64,000 nucleotides of DNA from Shigella phage ShigP1. The notes under the pieces are model-generated. The model worked only from the letters and a program-made list of their open reading frames with translations, made no database searches and was not told where the DNA came from. The stretch is taken from the sequence record PQ818763; one strand, given 5' to 3'. Made by a program: the position numbers and the translations under genes. This document shows positions 5,367-28,622 of this stretch, piece after piece. Position 1 is the stretch's first letter. Every line of letters starts with the position of its first letter.

Positions 5367-5442
5367 TGGTGCGCCCTACAGGACTCGAACCTGTAACCAA
5401 TAGCTTAGAAGGCTACTGCTCTATCCATTGAGCTAAGAGCGC
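5367..5442 (-). tRNA. tRNA-Arg (anticodon UCU)
   Basis: Hand fold: acceptor GCGCTCT/AGGGCGC, D-arm GCTC-AATGGATA-GAGC, anticodon stem GTAGC/GCTAT with loop CTTCTAA, T-arm ACAGG-TTCGAGT-CCTGT, discriminator A, encoded CCA; 76 nt. Confidence 0.8.
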
Positions 5443-7522: not shown

Positions 7523-7748
7523 CTTTAGCCTCTATATTAGTTATGTGGAGATCGCTGCGTACTTGGCAGACTTCATCCCGTTTAAAAGGCATGAGCTTTC
7601 CAGTTACCACATCAACACAGTTGACATAATTGTCTGCGTACAATGTGTCGGTTCTAATGTAAAGGGATTCTTTACGCTCAAACAGAACGCCCGGCTTCAT
7701 GTTGTTTAATCGAAGCATTGTACGATCGGATTTAATATTAACTTTCAC
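7512..7748 (-). CDS. small protein, paralog family 1 (GTG start proposed)
   Basis: Track ORF 7512-7856 trimmed to a GTG at 7746-7748 preceded by AGGAG; resulting N-terminus KVNIKSD... matches family member MKVNELNK...; MKPGVLF and CVDVVTG motifs. Confidence 0.4.
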   Translation of the reverse strand: MKVNIKSDRTMLRLNNMKPGVLFERKESLYIRTDTLYADNYVNCVDVVTGKLMPFKRDEVCQVRSDLHITNIEAKDED

Positions 7749-8034
7749 TGTTAATCTCCTGCTGCTTAGCAATAGCCGCTCGCAAGTCTTCATTAGCACG
7801 AGCAAGGCGCAACACTTCATGATTGAGGTTCTGAAGACGTTTGTTTCTGTCTTCAACTTGCATAATAAGATCGTTGAGTGTTACTTTAACTTTCTCATTA
7901 TACATCTCATCCACTCGAACTAGGGATTTATACATTCTTTCCCAGCTTGCTGCTTTATTTCTGAGAATAATAAATCCTAGAACGCTGATAGTTAAACAGC
8001 TTACAAAAAGGAATTTATATACTTCTAAAGTCAT
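7738..8034 (-). CDS. membrane-anchored coiled-coil protein (Rz/i-spanin-like architecture)
   Basis: N-terminal transmembrane helix FLFVSCLTISVLGFIIL followed by heptad-like charged region. Confidence 0.4.
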   Translation of the reverse strand: MTLEVYKFLFVSCLTISVLGFIILRNKAASWERMYKSLVRVDEMYNEKVKVTLNDLIMQVEDRNKRLQNLNHEVLRLARANEDLRAAIAKQQEINSES

Positions 8035-8234
8035 ATTATTTACCCTTTTATCAGAGATTAAAAGTAATATTATTTAAGTAAGTTATATTTAGTAAACTTA
8101 TTTTCTAAGAAATTTTCAAAGGGTCTATATACAGAGCATTACCCATAGTCCCAGAATACTGCCATCTTTTTCAATAAATTTACTAAGTGGTTGGTTTATA
8201 AAGGAATTTAGTTTGTCAAATCTGGCACTAGTGA

Positions 8235-8624
8235 TTATTCCCTAGAGCTATTATCGAACACTAAATCACCACAATACATAGGATTGGCATACCATTTTGG
8301 CACCCCTTCGCTCTTACTCTGAAAGTAAGTCCCACTGTACAGCGGAACATAATTCTTCTTAAGGGCACGTTTAGCAAGTCGCTCGCTTTCTCCAATGGCT
8401 TGCTTAGTCATCGGATTTTTATCACGAATCAGCTTTACATAACGTTTATAAGGTTTCTCCTGTTTTAATAGTACCGGAATCCACTCAAACTGGTTCTTTT
8501 GTCTTATCACCTGTTCAGCGGTCAGTTTTCGTTGGGCCATTCTATTTATCACGGTATCCGCAACTAAAGCCTTACATGCGGTTGGCTGATTCCCTGCCTC
8601 ATAATAAATAGTCAATGTCAACAT
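8235..8624 (-). CDS. cell-wall hydrolase, SleB/CwlJ (Hydrolase_2) family
   Basis: Motifs YYEAGNQPTACKALVADTVINR and QFEWIP resemble the SleB/CwlJ catalytic core. Confidence 0.55.
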   Translation of the reverse strand: MLTLTIYYEAGNQPTACKALVADTVINRMAQRKLTAEQVIRQKNQFEWIPVLLKQEKPYKRYVKLIRDKNPMTKQAIGESERLAKRALKKNYVPLYSGTYFQSKSEGVPKWYANPMYCGDLVFDNSSRE

Positions 8625-8699
8625 TAGCTGTGCCGTTGTTATCAGAACTTGCTACCTCCTGTTTTGTTGTTTCAATAAACACCCTCGAAAAGATGCTTA

Positions 8700-8727
8700 T
8701 AGAAACACCCCTCCCTTTCGGGAGAGG
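8700..8727 (-). terminator. putative terminator (minus strand)
   Basis: Hairpin CCTCTCCC-GAAA-GGGAGGGG followed by TGTTTCT on the minus strand, after the stop at 8735. Confidence 0.45.
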
Positions 8728-8734
8728 CACTATC

Positions 8735-9636
8735 TTACCACTCGTAACTTACACCAGCGCCCAGAACAGCGTCACTCTCTGAAGTCATTGCCACTGATGC
8801 TTTAGTTACTACGTTTTCATTGAAACGAGCACTAACACCAATAGCAAGAGCAGATTCACCATCGTAAGCACCTACCCCAGCACCAACAGAGAAAGCAGAT
8901 CCTTGACTTACTTGCGGGATGTTAGCCATTGCAGCCACGCCAGAAATACCAGCAGAGGCATGATCACGGTTACGGTCTACTTGTTTTTGCAAAGAAGCAA
9001 AACGTTTGTTGGTGGATTGTTCCAGAGCTTTGATAGATTTGGCGTTAGCATTAACGGCAGACATATCTGCATCTTTACCATTTTTGCCATTTAATCCGTC
9101 AACGCCATTCAAACCTGCTGCACCAGTTAGGCCAGTTTCGCCTTTCTTACCATCTGCACCAGAATCACCTTTTTCACCTTGAGCGCCATCTTTACCATCA
9201 ATGCCATCTTTACCATTGATGCCATCTTTACCATCAATGCCATCTTTACCATCAATGCCATCTTNNNNNNNNNNNNNNNNNNNNNNNNNNNNNNNNNNNN
9301 NNNNNNNNNNNNNNNNNNNNNNNNNNNNNNNNNNNNNNNNNNNNNNNNNNNNNNNNNNNCAATGCCATCTTTACCATCAATGCCATCTTTACCATCAATG
9401 CCATTAGTACCATTGATGCCAGCCGATCCAGTATCACCTTTTAAGCCCTGCTCTCCGCGATCACCCTTGTCACCTTTCGGACCTTGTTCGCCTTGAATAC
9501 CCTGTTCTCCTTTATCACCTTTCGGCCCCTGCTGGACTTCACACTGTTTAGAGTGTGAGCATTTGTCAGAATGAGCAAAGGATGGGGCACTAATGGCAGA
9601 TAAAACTAGAATAGCTGACAATGCAAATGCTTTCAT
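8735..9636 (-). CDS. secreted collagen-like protein with YadA-type C-terminal anchor (trimeric-autotransporter-like); interrupted by assembly gap
   Basis: Signal peptide MKAFALSAILVLSAISAPSFA; G-X-Y triplets on both sides of the N-run; (IDGKDG)n encoded by an 18-bp tandem repeat; C-terminus GISGVAAMANIPQ...VGAGVGAYDGESALAIGVSARF...LGAGVSYEW matches the YadA anchor pattern; track ORFs 9127-9708 and 8735-9112 are the two halves put out of frame by the gap. Confidence 0.6.
9185..9410 (-). repeat. 18-bp tandem repeat (CATTGATGGTAAAGATGG on the coding strand) with N-run 9265-9359 inside
   Basis: At least 4 copies left of the gap and about 3 right of it; the gap is flanked by identical repeat units. 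Confidence 0.85.
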
Positions 9637-9661
9637 TTCATGGTTTCCTATATAATAGATA

Positions 9662-9717
9662 CAAAAAAGCCTCCAATTAAGGAGGCGGTAACGCAAAAAG
9701 CCGCCCAAAGGCGGCTA
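9662..9717 (-). terminator. tandem rho-independent terminators (minus strand)
   Basis: Hairpins AGCCGCC-TTTG-GGCGGCT and GCCTCC-TTAATT-GGAGGC, each followed by a T-run on the minus strand. Confidence 0.6.
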
Positions 9718-9761
9718 TGCGGAAGCTTCAAATGGGGAGAGGGCACGACGCTACAGAAAGA

Positions 9762-9779
9762 GCGTCATAGTACTAAAAG
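9762..9779 (-). promoter_or_regulatory. conserved 18-nt intergenic motif GCGTCATAGTACTAAAAG, copy 2
   Basis: Identical to 1944-1961; same position relative to flanking genes and hairpins. Confidence 0.4.
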
Positions 9780-9796
9780 AGGGGGCTATATTCCTA

Positions 9797-10240
9797 CTAC
9801 TTAACCCTTGCCTCTTTGATGGGGTCAATGTATTTCTCAACGCCCCACTTGTGTTTACTATCTGCGTAGAAAACATCAGGTGCACACTGGCTTGTCTTAG
9901 GGAATGCCTGAGGGTCTTTCGTGCTACCCTTAAACTTCTGTTTACCACGGGTGCGACCATTACAGAAGATTTCTAACTTCTTCTCTTCTTCTGTTTTAGC
10001 GCCCCCGCTCTGTAACAAAGAACGTTTATGATCAGCTAACAACAACGCATCAGCACGATGGACACGATGGCCTACACGTTTTGCCACACTGGAAGGAACA
10101 TGGGATTCAGCCTCAGCCTTTGCAGCACGGCGTTTTAAACTACGCTTACTAACGTGATTAGTTGCCTTCGGTTTCTCTTTCTCTAGTTCAGAGATAGCAA
10201 AACAACGCCCGCCCTTCATGCTGATTTTAGATTTAGCCAC
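9797..10240 (-). CDS. hypothetical basic protein (147 aa)
   Basis: ORF track; Lys/Arg-rich. Confidence 0.45.
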   Translation of the reverse strand: MAKSKISMKGGRCFAISELEKEKPKATNHVSKRSLKRRAAKAEAESHVPSSVAKRVGHRVHRADALLLADHKRSLLQSGGAKTEEEKKLEIFCNGRTRGKQKFKGSTKDPQAFPKTSQCAPDVFYADSKHKWGVEKYIDPIKEARVK

Positions 10241-10309
10241 AATCTTATTCCTTCCAGTGATAAGTTATATCGGGCAAGCCCATCAAGTCGATAGGCTTGA
10301 ACAAATAAC

Positions 10310-10519
10310 TTAATCAAGTAAACTAAACGATTTCCAACTACGTAGAAGGATTGTACCGTCATCCATAGTTACACATAATTTTAGTAGTTTCTTATTGGCA
10401 CTACTCACCGTTGTAATTCGTCCGGTTGTACATTTACCTTTATTGCTATAAAGATACACTACACGACGGCCTAACAGACGAGAGGGAGCTTTCTTAAACT
10501 CTGAAATGTTAGTGATCAT
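10310..10519 (-). CDS. hypothetical protein (69 aa)
   Basis: ORF track only. Confidence 0.4.
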   Translation of the reverse strand: MITNISEFKKAPSRLLGRRVVYLYSNKGKCTTGRITTVSSANKKLLKLCVTMDDGTILLRSWKSFSLLD

Positions 10520-26219: not shown

Positions 26220-28622
26220 ATGATCGTTTATAATAACCAAGCACCTGATGCAGTGAATAACGTTGGGCAGTTTGGTGCTACTGAAGGCTCTATCGGGGCT
26301 TATAAGCAAGCAGCAGAATATGCAGCTGACTCCAAATATTGGGCACTGTTAGCAGAATCTAAGTTTGGTACAATTGATGATTTAATCGCTGAAGTAGAAC
26401 GTCTATATCAACAGGGTGTTCTGATGAAGCAGGATATTGAAGATCTTAAGCAGGATTTTAAGGATCAAGATGCTCGTTTGATGACTCTGATTGCCCAAAC
26501 CAACGCAGCAGTATCGGATGCTAATAATGCCGTTGCTCTCATTAACCAAAAACTTATTGAAGTCCAGAATCAGCTTGATGTTCTGTTAGGAATGTCTGTT
26601 GATGTAACAACTCTCCCTCCGGGAACTCCGGCTACTGGCTCTTTTAATCCTAACACTGGTGTAATCTCTTTAGGTATTCCAGAAGGTGATCCCGGAAAAG
26701 ATGGTTCTGTTAAGGATTTGGATACAGCACCTACAGGTGTTCCAGAGCTAGGTGATTTAGGTTTCTATGTTGACAAAGATGACAATACCGTCCACAAAAC
26801 TACTCTAGATAACATTGCTAATTTAATCCCATCTGTTCGTTCTGTCTCTATTAACGGCGGTCCAGCTCTTGATGGAGAGGTTGCTCTAACACTTAACAAA
26901 GAGACGGTAGGTTTAGGGAATGTTCTGAACGTTGCTCAGTACAGTCGTCAAGAGATTAATGACAAGTTTGATAAAACCACCAAGACATATCAATCTAAAG
27001 CAGAAGCTGATGCTGACGCTCAGTATCGCCAAGTTGGTGAGAAGGTCTTAGTTTGGGCAGCTACTAAGTATGAATTTTATACTGTTGCTGCTAACAAAAC
27101 ATTAACTCCTGTTAAAACTGAAGGTAGAATTCTTACTGTTAATTCCCGTTCTCCAGACTCCAGTGGTAATATTGACATTACCATTCCAACAGGAAACCCT
27201 TCTCTATATCTTGGTGAGATGGTAATGTTCCCTTATGACCCAACGAAGAATATCTCCTATCCGGGCGTTCTTCCAGCCGATGGTCGTCTAGTGTCTAAAG
27301 AGTCTGCTTCAGATTTAGGCCCATCCCTTGTCAGTGGACAACTTCCTGTTGTTTCTGAAACTGAATGGCAAGCAGGGGCTAAACAATACTTCTCTTGGGG
27401 TAAATTGGCAGATGGTATTACCGATGCAGATTCTACTAATTTTATCAACATTCGACTTCCTGATTGGACTGGAGGGGAGGCAATAAGAGCACCAGATTCT
27501 GATAAAGACTCTCAGTACAATGGGTCTGTACAGGCTCAGAAACCTTATGTTGTTACTGTAAATAACCAAGCTCCTGATGAGATTACTGGTAATGTGAACA
27601 TCTCCAGATCAATTTTAGGTGCTGCCGCTTCTGGTACAAACTCTGATATAACATCCCTCACGGGACTCACTACAGCACTGTCTGTCACACAAGGAGGCAC
27701 TGGAGCTAAAGACGCTGCTAGTGCTCGTTCTAATCTAGGTCTNNNNNNNNNNNNNNNNNNNNNNNNNNNNNNNNNNNNNNNNNNNNNNNNNNNNNNNNNN
27801 NNNNNNNNNNNNNNNNNNNNNNNNNNNNNNNNNNNNNNTGCTGCTAGTGCTCGTTCTAATCTAGGGTTGGGAAGTGTTTCCACTCTGGATAATGTACCTA
27901 TTGCTAATGGTGGGACAGGGGCTGGAGATGCTGCTGGTGCAAGGTTCAATATTGGAGCGCTAAGTAACACCCCAGCAAATTCAGGCGTAGGTGGTACTGG
28001 GGATCGTGTCCAACATGCCTCCGGGAACGGCCTGTTTACTTTAGACTTGTTTAACTGCTACTGGTATATGCAGCCAGAGGATACTAACTTCTGGATTGCC
28101 CACGGTGTGTCATATGCAGGGTCTGGTGGCGAAGCCTCACAATACGGTCGCATATCTTACGCAATAAAGATTGCAGACGGAACAATAAAATATGTCCATT
28201 GTCTTACAAACAAAAACACCACTGTTGATGTAAACGGATTTATCAAAGCGGCATCTCCGGTAGTTCATATTTACTCCGACGGTCGATATGAGACGAACGA
28301 GGAATCTGAGGGGGTTAATGTCATTCGGCAAGGTGTTGGTGAGTACTTGATTACCGGTTGCCTTGGCTTAAACGCAGATGCAAAATGGGGAGGCATTGAC
28401 GGCGGCTTTGAAATCCCTACTGACCGCAACAAACAACCTAGGGTTTGGCTGGACTATGAGATTAAAGAAGATGGTTCTATTTTAGTTAAAACCCATCACA
28501 GAACCCATCCAACCTCTCCGGTTTTTGCTAGAAATGAGATAGAAGGTTTTTCTGACGGTGATCCTATTGATATCCCGAGTGATGCTTTTATTTCAGTTCG
28601 TGTTGAAATGCCTTCTGAGTAA
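26220..28622 (+). CDS. tail fibre or tail spike protein, contains assembly gap
   Basis: 800 aa; repeated motif AASARSNLG either side of N-run 27743-27838; Gly-rich repeats GGTGA...AAGARFNIG. Confidence 0.55.
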   Translation: MIVYNNQAPDAVNNVGQFGATEGSIGAYKQAAEYAADSKYWALLAESKFGTIDDLIAEVERLYQQGVLMKQDIEDLKQDFKDQDARLMTLIAQTNAAVSDANNAVALINQKLIEVQNQLDVLLGMSVDVTTLPPGTPATGSFNPNTGVISLGIPEGDPGKDGSVKDLDTAPTGVPELGDLGFYVDKDDNTVHKTTLDNIANLIPSVRSVSINGGPALDGEVALTLNKETVGLGNVLNVAQYSRQEINDKFDKTTKTYQSKAEADADAQYRQVGEKVLVWAATKYEFYTVAANKTLTPVKTEGRILTVNSRSPDSSGNIDITIPTGNPSLYLGEMVMFPYDPTKNISYPGVLPADGRLVSKESASDLGPSLVSGQLPVVSETEWQAGAKQYFSWGKLADGITDADSTNFINIRLPDWTGGEAIRAPDSDKDSQYNGSVQAQKPYVVTVNNQAPDEITGNVNISRSILGAAASGTNSDITSLTGLTTALSVTQGGTGAKDAASARSNLGXXXXXXXXXXXXXXXXXXXXXXXXXXXXXXXXXAASARSNLGLGSVSTLDNVPIANGGTGAGDAAGARFNIGALSNTPANSGVGGTGDRVQHASGNGLFTLDLFNCYWYMQPEDTNFWIAHGVSYAGSGGEASQYGRISYAIKIADGTIKYVHCLTNKNTTVDVNGFIKAASPVVHIYSDGRYETNEESEGVNVIRQGVGEYLITGCLGLNADAKWGGIDGGFEIPTDRNKQPRVWLDYEIKEDGSILVKTHHRTHPTSPVFARNEIEGFSDGDPIDIPSDAFISVRVEMPSE

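Follow-up and report, generated by a model that had tools for sequence, protein, structure and literature searches.

A gene for a predicted collagen-stalked trimeric autotransporter in an accessory cassette of the virulent Shigella phage ShigP1

Shigella phage ShigP1 carries a gene whose product belongs, by sequence and by predicted fold, to the membrane-anchor family of the trimeric autotransporter adhesins (TAAs). The gene lies in the 64,000-nucleotide stretch of ShigP1 DNA that was analysed here (sequence record PQ818763, hereafter the window). It is a single gene on the minus strand, with its start codon (ATG) at 9636-9634 and its stop codon (TAA) at 8737-8735, just as it had been placed in a preliminary description of this DNA, which was made from the letters alone. 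The gene, an orthologue of gp119 of phage phiEco32, forms an accessory cassette of a virulent Kuravirus, and its product is probably a small surface protein of type Vc, i.e., a trimeric autotransporter, which would act as a fibre on the cell surface.

The window is that of a Kuravirus, i.e., a phiEco32-like Escherichia coli podophage of the C3 morphotype, and shows 95-99% identity to Kuravirus genomes overall. The region around the gene (bases 8000-10500) matches 99 phage records, nearly all of them of Escherichia phages, with EK5 and phiEco32 at the top (~97%), and the adjoining bases 10500-35000 match Ec3-ASingh and MN03 at 97.8-97.9% identity. Kuraviruses are lytic phages according to the literature, and the preliminary description, which had attributed the gene to a lytic phage, was right in this respect: the genus is Kuravirus and the phage is virulent.

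The C-terminus is a YadA-type membrane anchor

The gene contains a gap in the assembly (discussed below), and profile searches, which had been proposed as a check in the preliminary description, were run on a protein reconstructed across it. Both domains expected from that description scored above their cut-offs. The Pfam profile YadA_anchor (PF03895) matched with 69.7 bits against a cut-off of 22.7 (E 2.2e-19), covering profile positions 1-60 of 60 and extending to the last residue of the protein, and the Pfam profile Collagen matched with 77.5 bits against a cut-off of 27.2. The last 90 residues were also aligned, gap-free, to the YadA anchor determined by solid-state nuclear magnetic resonance (2LME, E 7e-9), the ALAIG motif and the terminal E-W included, and among the sequences of the Protein Data Bank (PDB) the Hia anchors 2GR7, 2GR8 and 3EMO were matched as well (~2e-5). 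Within the C-terminal part of the protein, 21 collagen triplets are followed by a 40-residue non-collagen segment and then by the end, ...ALAIGVSARF...LGAGVSYEW; the C-terminal aromatic residue of the beta-signal, by which the beta-barrel assembly machinery (BAM) recognises its substrates, is present (...GAGVSYEW).

The C-terminal 125 amino acids were modelled with AlphaFold2 from a 14-sequence alignment. The model (predicted local distance difference test score of 85) consists of a helix at residues 11-63, followed by four strands at residues 74-83, 86-96, 101-110 and 115-123. When it was compared with the PDB using Foldseek, the only significant matches were five anchors of Hia, AtaA and YadA (E 6e-8 to 5e-4, template modelling score 0.56-0.75), and the next match had an E of 0.16. 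Taken together, the Pfam profile, the alignment to solved anchors and the predicted fold confirm the earlier reading of the C-terminus as a YadA-type anchor. In the window the anchor spans 8738..8917 (minus strand), with four beta-strands per protomer, the ALAIG motif and a C-terminal Y-E-W, and it is preceded by a helical neck or coiled-coil segment (8918..9070, minus strand), which is predicted, from the AlphaFold2 model and the alignment to the YadA/Hia helix, to run through the barrel pore. Neck and anchor stand directly C-terminal of the collagen tract and, by analogy with the family, may trimerise and nucleate its helix. YadA_head and stalk domains were not detected in the protein by Pfam profiles.

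A collagen-like stalk follows a putative signal peptide

The N-terminus of the protein reads MKAFALSAILVLSAISAPSFA up to a putative cleavage site, after which it continues with HSDKC. Position 2 is a lysine, the hydrophobic core is 14 residues long (mean Kyte-Doolittle value 2.3), S-F-A stands at positions -3 to -1, and a lipobox was not seen by inspection. The signal peptide proposed earlier is thus recovered with its charged n-region, hydrophobic core and S-F-A cleavage motif, and by inspection we place a Sec-type signal peptide at residues 1-21 (9574..9636, minus strand). The mature protein would begin with a distal tip of 15 residues, HSDKCSHSKQCEVQQ (9529..9573, minus strand), which is the allele-variable part of the protein and has two cysteines among its first 11 residues, in agreement with the Cys-containing linker of the preliminary description.

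The tip is followed by a collagen-like tract, both parts of which lie on the minus strand. Part 1 (9360..9528) consists of 18 G-X-Y triplets with IDGKDG repeats at its end, part 2 (9071..9264) consists of 21 triplets, and between them lies the assembly gap, a run of 95 N (9265..9359) within the 18-nucleotide (nt) tandem repeat that encodes IDGKDG. The two sides of the gap thus hold 39 uninterrupted triplets (18 + 21), a number that is a lower bound for the gene. As detected by Tandem Repeats Finder, the 18-nt repeat reaches the gap from both sides, with 4.4 copies at 93% on one and 2.5 copies at 100% on the other. These triplets and tandem repeats, together with the Pfam Collagen match, bear out what had been claimed earlier, namely long collagen triplets with an (IDGKDG)n block. 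Only 2 of the 78 X and Y positions of the tract are proline, and 53% are charged residues; such a proline-poor, charged composition is typical of bacterial collagen-like proteins.

The gene is an accessory cassette at a cargo-exchange site

The gene is syntenic with phi32_119 of phiEco32 (gp119), its orthologue at the same locus. Its C-terminal 118 amino acids are 100% identical in phiEco32, EcP-vB, EcM-vB1 and FS2B, and its 5' 296 nt are 100% identical in EcP-vB, EcK-vB and EcM-vB1. Of the ~100 phage records with a match to the locus, only 14 have the anchor at ≥95% identity, and SU10 is without the gene. The interval between the gp120 and gp117 homologues is occupied by the adhesin gene in the phiEco32 clade, is empty in CHD5UKE1 and 1-6af, and in pEC-N1203-2Af.1 holds an unrelated open reading frame (ORF), whose translation appears by eye to be XRE-type helix-turn-helix-like. 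The junctions of the site are common to these variants: on the 5' side TATCTATT[A/G]TATAGGAA, and likewise the junction on the 3' side. A GC-rich hairpin with a weak T-tract (8710..8727, minus strand), located just past the stop codon, marks the 3' edge of the cassette. The gp120-gp117 junction is a cargo-exchange hot-spot in Kuravirus, and the adhesin gene is an accessory cassette. With regard to the features by which a moron is recognised, the gene is polymorphic in presence and absence at a fixed site between conserved genes; as to a promoter and terminator of its own, terminators lie 5' of it and the hairpin lies 3', and the promoter-like sequence is only a 7/9 match to the gp36-type consensus (see below).

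The gene occurs with two N-terminal alleles, of which the window's was found only in EcP-vB, EcK-vB, EcM-vB1 and, in part, PGN6866. The idea that the tip is matched to the receptor-binding protein of the phage was dropped, as the alleles do not track the tail-fibre modules (98.5-99.2% identical). Concerning a host origin of the gene, a blastn search in distant mode found no match to the anchor DNA in 5,426 complete E. coli genomes, and the GC content of the gene does not stand out.

Elements upstream of the gene

The leftward gene cluster is of the early class, for which the host RNA polymerase with sigma-70 initiates at promoters located where the cluster begins (PMC8948821; PMC4281155; PMC12276001). 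According to secondary descriptions of the phiEco32/SU10 literature, the adhesin gene would share this early class and its product would be absent from virions. Two putative intrinsic terminators separate the gene from the gp120 homologue. Terminator 1, AGCCGCCTTTGGGCGGCT followed by a T-tract (9699..9716, minus strand), lies 3' of the gp120 homologue and is conserved in relatives whether they carry the cassette or not. Terminator 2, GCCTCCTTAATTGGAGGC followed by TTTTTT (9669..9686, minus strand), lies directly 5' of the adhesin gene and varies in sequence with the allele, being CCCCGGCTACGGCTGGGG at the same position in phiEco32-type genomes.

Closer to the start codon lies the 5' junction element TATTATATAGGA (9646..9657, minus strand), with an AGGA Shine-Dalgarno sequence 9 nt before the ATG. 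It holds the 9-mer TATTATATA (9657-9649, minus strand), which weakly matches, in 7 of 9 positions, the consensus of promoters of the phage sigma factor gp36, tAATGTAtA (PMC8948821). At the same place, matches in 8 of 9 positions are found in phiEco32-type cassettes (TACTGTATA) and in front of the other cargo, that of pEC-N1203-2Af.1 (TATTGTATA). When searched for in the window with up to one mismatch, the gp36 element TAATGTATA was not enriched (23 found versus 20.9 expected), and for this reason we treat the sequence 5' of the gene as no more than a pointer to a possible promoter. Transcripts starting 6-8 nt 3' of the gp36-like element would be nearly leaderless mRNAs lacking the AGGA ribosome-binding site, and this, too, is given as a lead only.

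Alternative explanations

Taken literally, the 95 N of the gap put the N- and C-terminal halves of the gene out of frame by one base, and MN03 is annotated with a C-terminal fragment of 125 amino acids only. These observations could suggest a broken or decaying gene that yields no full-length protein. However, the window contains a second N run (96 N, 27743-27838), located inside a repeated motif (…GGTGAKDAASARSNLGL…) of a tail-fibre gene, and between the same flanks MN03 and Bas90 have 252 nt, the repeat being collapsed in Ec3-ASingh. Since 96 N stand here for 252 nt in relatives, the lengths of the N runs carry no information; both runs are placeholders at unresolved repeats of a draft assembly. 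A gap of 96 nt (6 + 5×18) would preserve both the frame and the 18-nt register. Moreover, EcP-vB, whose sequence is identical to the window on both sides of the gap, has an intact product of 258 amino acids, and like it phiEco32, EK5, Ec3-ASingh, Bas90 and phiEc_1 have uninterrupted orthologous ORFs, with ~2 to 8 IDGKDG units. As for MN03, its linear record (MT129653.1, 76601-77187) stops within the gene's IDGKDG repeat, which accounts for the truncated annotation as an artefact of assembly or permutation. The gene is probably intact in ShigP1, and we regard its decay as highly improbable.

Database labels would make the protein part of the virion, as a tail or fibre protein with the collagen rod as its shaft and the C-terminal domain as its trimerisation module: the best PHROG match is phrog_26246 ('tail protein'), the G-X-Y region has matches to many tail-fibre PHROGs that contain collagen, and RefSeq names phi32_119 'tail protein'. 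In line with such a role, virions of a cyanophage were found to contain a 'YadA domain-containing structural protein' (PMC9146016). Yet the tail-fibre PHROG matches are limited to the low-complexity collagen part, and a Sec signal combined with an outer-membrane barrel anchor that ends in an aromatic residue is incompatible with virion assembly in the cytoplasm. The gene also lies in the early leftward cluster, outside the structural module. Most Kuraviruses do without it, among them SU10, the phage from whose virion structure the structural genes of the genus were annotated (PMC11990801). Furthermore, a T4-like homologue, an ORF with a YadA anchor in Serratia phages, is part of a 6.5-kb region that can be deleted (Chen et al. 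2017, PMC5449768). A virion protein is thus very unlikely, and the view taken in the preliminary description, that of a bacterial adhesin design and not a virion fibre, is consistent with the export signal, the position in the early cluster, the absence from most Kuraviruses and the non-structural or deletable homologues. A second possibility is that the gene benefits the bacterium rather than the phage, as an Eib-like virulence or colonisation gene that provides an adhesin or a serum-resistance factor. The immunoglobulin-binding Eib TAAs are indeed prophage-encoded, with an anchor of ~34% identity, the Salmonella-phage homologue was listed as a putative virulence gene by Moreno Switt et al. 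(PMC3728262), and the collagen repeats of VtaA2 of Glaesserella parasuis contribute to collagen binding (PMC6755704). Kuraviruses, however, are lytic, and the infected cell is dead within one latent period; no lysogeny gene is annotated in the stretches examined, in which no search was aimed at an integrase or repressor. In addition, the anchor is not resident in lysogens, as blastn found no copy of it in the 5,426 complete E. coli genomes. A benefit to the host is therefore unlikely.

The neighbouring genes raise a further alternative, since the preliminary description had placed the adhesin gene beside a SleB-like hydrolase and an Rz-like protein; the hydrolase stood up to analysis and the Rz-like protein did not. 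The downstream neighbour (8624..8235, minus strand, 129 amino acids) matches Pfam Hydrolase_2 (SleB/CwlJ type) with 32.2 bits against a cut-off of 27. It is without a signal peptide and lies in the early cluster, separate from the endolysin of the late module. The 98-amino-acid protein gp116 (8034..7738, minus strand) begins with a transmembrane-like segment and also contains coiled-coil-like sequence; profile searches matched it to no spanin family, and the annotated Rz-like spanin of the genus lies elsewhere, beside the sigma-factor gene, with holin and endolysin in the late structural module (PMC9965538). The RefSeq label of this 98-amino-acid protein, 'DNA helicase', which derives from PHROG 12154, is almost certainly a misannotation. 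Adjoining these two genes, the adhesin might be thought to act as a lysis accessory, together with the adjacent hydrolase, to weaken the envelope. The SleB-like gene, however, is present in all Kuraviruses examined and is identical where the adhesin is missing, and to our knowledge TAA anchors, the pores of which are plugged, have no lytic role. We found no genetic linkage of the adhesin gene to holin, endolysin or spanin, and because these are located elsewhere the adhesin is not in the lysis cassette; the hint given by its neighbourhood is misleading, and a role as lysis accessory is extremely unlikely. Taken together, the protein is most probably part of neither the virion nor the lysis cassette.

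Two other features of this part of the genome were observed. An AT-rich trough (GC 0.28) lies at 7850-8300, between the gp117 and gp116 homologues, with two matches to sigma-70-like promoters on the minus strand at 8096-8069 and 7995-7967, and the early cluster also contains a tRNA-Arg gene (anticodon TCT; 5367-5442, minus strand), as it does in phiEco32.

Homologues in other phages

A tblastn search with the C-terminal 118 amino acids returned 102 phage records, and six of these were examined in context. In the N4-like Salmonella phage TR2 (and also in SP-058 and SP-076), the homologue has ~67% identity over the C-terminal region and a collagen stalk, and its gene adjoins that of a dUTPase. 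The homologue of the N4-like Erwinia phage S6 likewise adjoins a dUTPase and has a coiled-coil passenger, and coiled-coil passengers are also found in the jumbo phage GAP32 and in SKML-39 of the Ackermannviridae. The T4-like Yersinia phage phiR1-RT encodes, in g139 (locus L018, 2402-2770), a protein of 122 amino acids that consists of a signal peptide, ~30 residues and the YadA anchor. In the jumbo Aeromonas phage LAh10 the anchor belongs to a large protein, the coding sequence of which is cut at the edge of the locus, with the N-terminus outside. The homologues of TR2, S6, GAP32, SKML-39 and phiR1-RT have in common a signal peptide, a fibrous passenger and an anchor ending in W or F, and all lie outside structural modules. 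The short g139 of phiR1-RT raises the possibility that the anchor alone carries the function in some phages.

The family extends well beyond these phages: an exhaustive HMMER search yielded 2,294 cluster representatives at E ≤ 1e-3. Among the closest 147 representatives the median length is 418 amino acids, and most end in W (140/147) and have signal-like N-termini (110/147), with at least six G-X-Y triplets in 18/147. A word-indexed protein search gave 16 matches, all of them short or fragmentary; one, from Hafnia, is a chromosomal anchor fragment of 134 amino acids in an uninformative context.

Proposed mechanism and role of the surface fibre

In the mechanism that we consider probable, the gene would be transcribed with the leftward early genes, either by polymerase that reads past the two terminators in front of it or from a weak promoter nearby. 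As its sequence suggests, the 21-residue signal peptide would then direct the product to export via the host Sec pathway. By analogy with the family, three four-stranded C-terminal units would trimerise, and host BAM would insert them into the outer membrane as one barrel of 12 strands, its pore occupied by the three neck helices. The passenger would be threaded out from the C- to the N-terminus and zip into a triple helix of the collagen type that comprises 39 or more triplets, i.e., ~33 nm plus the content of the gap, and in which Lys/Asp/Glu pairs, and not proline, are abundant. The fibre would end in the 15-residue tip, whose two cysteines could make inter-chain disulfides. Slippage in the 18-nt repeat may vary the length of the fibre among phages, from ~2 to 8 or more IDGKDG units.

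Early in infection, a layer of such fibres would give the infected cell, which bears O-antigen, a remodelled surface. O-antigen is needed for Kuravirus infection (PMC11990801). By superinfection exclusion or receptor shielding, the fibres might make adsorption harder for rival phages, or for the progeny of the phage itself, or they might clump infected cells with their neighbours. This last step, i.e., that the role of the fibre is to shield the O-antigen-bearing surface from adsorption, or to clump cells, is the least certain one, and we offer it as speculation. With similar reserve, we raise the possibility that at least five unrelated lineages of virulent phages (Kuravirus, N4-like Schitoviridae, T4-like Straboviridae, Ackermannviridae and GAP32-type jumbo phages) plant short TAA fibres on their hosts via Sec and BAM early in infection and thereby control adsorption or glue hosts together, the Kuravirus fibre being a collagen rod of tunable length.

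Several points weigh against this account. The signal peptide was called by inspection only, i.e., heuristically. Two tandem terminators (9716-9699 and 9686-9669) lie directly upstream of the gene, and a sigma-70 scan found no convincing promoter there. With regard to the role, most of the Kuraviruses with this type of receptor lack the gene, the two tip alleles both sit on tail-fibre modules that are 98.5-99.2% identical, and phiR1-RT g139, with almost no passenger, is a poor fit to shielding in that phage. More generally, the expression, export and trimerisation of the gene product are predicted from its sequence and family, and its display on the surface of the infected cell, although well supported, is something that we infer.

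Significance and prior knowledge

The presence of the gene and its architecture are already in the databases and the literature, and their novelty is low. The gene has been labelled 'agglutinating adhesin' in GenBank since 2008 (phi32_119), a putative function assigned by homology only, and its other labels are 'tail protein' in RefSeq and 'YadA-like protein' in EcP-vB and EcM-vB1. Moreno Switt et al. (2013) described a yadA homologue that phiEco32 shares with two virulent Salmonella phages, SP-058 and SP-076, and that lies away from the tail genes (PMC3728262). In the full-text literature we found no experimental study of the phage protein, only remarks on genome annotation (PMC3728262, PMC9146016, PMC5449768).

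The significance of the gene is that it extends a bacterial surface-adhesin design beyond prophages, such as the Eib carriers, to strictly virulent phages. Factors that help the host to colonise are of no benefit to a virulent phage, so that the protein presumably acts in the interest of the infection, and its candidate roles are superinfection exclusion, sparing the progeny re-adsorption to O-antigen-bearing debris, and the clumping of hosts. Kuraviruses are popular for therapy, and the 'adhesin' label is sometimes taken as a virulence flag, a matter that knowledge of the real role would settle. The value of the gene thus lies in a functional experiment rather than in the sequence observation.

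Comparison with known systems

The nearest known counterpart is gp119 of phiEco32 (ABY52920.1), the orthologue at the same locus. The EcP-vB allele equals the window on both sides of the gap, whereas phiEco32, MN03 and Bas90 differ from the window in having another signal peptide, the tip KSGNNGNGNGGCGVGQSTNGCGIGDWF and another upstream terminator. The number of IDGKDG copies varies as well, from ~2 in phiEco32 to 7-8 in Bas90. A similar protein, also labelled 'agglutinating adhesin', is encoded by the N4-like phages FSL SP-058, SP-076 and TR2 (gp24); it begins with a signal peptide and a Cys-containing head, which a long collagen-like stalk links to the anchor. These phages, too, are virulent and carry the gene in a non-structural region, but they belong to the Schitoviridae and their N-terminal head is longer (~70 amino acids). 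Apart from this gene, phiEco32 and the N4-like SP-058 and SP-076 have no homology (PMC3728262).

Among bacterial TAAs, YadA of Yersinia, Hia of Haemophilus and AtaA of Acinetobacter share with the window's protein the anchor, the helix through the pore, the terminal aromatic residue and the Sec signal. They differ in their globular heads and coiled-coil stalks (YadA_head, YadA_stalk), whereas the passenger described here is almost all collagen, with a tip of 15 residues, and is encoded by a virulent phage. The combination of collagen with a YadA anchor is itself an established design, as the VtaA proteins of Glaesserella (Haemophilus) parasuis, likened here by their description, are bacterial TAAs with collagen triple-helix repeats, and those of VtaA2 contribute to collagen binding (PMC6755704). 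Unlike the phage protein, the VtaAs are large chromosomal virulence factors with extra adhesin motifs. The Eib proteins (P-EibA, P-EibD) are likewise phage-borne E. coli TAAs, with an anchor ~34% identical to that of the window, but they belong to temperate prophages, are expressed in lysogens and bear a coiled-coil, immunoglobulin-binding passenger that benefits the host.

Finally, the stalk resembles those of Scl1 and Scl2 of Streptococcus and BclA of Bacillus, which are likewise proline-poor, charge-stabilised collagen stalks, a similarity that is compositional. In line with this, the NCBIfam models Scl and Lcl match the G-X-Y region below their cut-offs, and BclA is among the PDB matches. 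The anchoring of these stalks, by LPXTG or to the exosporium, differs from the outer-membrane barrel of the window's protein, and for BclA, too, length polymorphism through the number of repeats is known.

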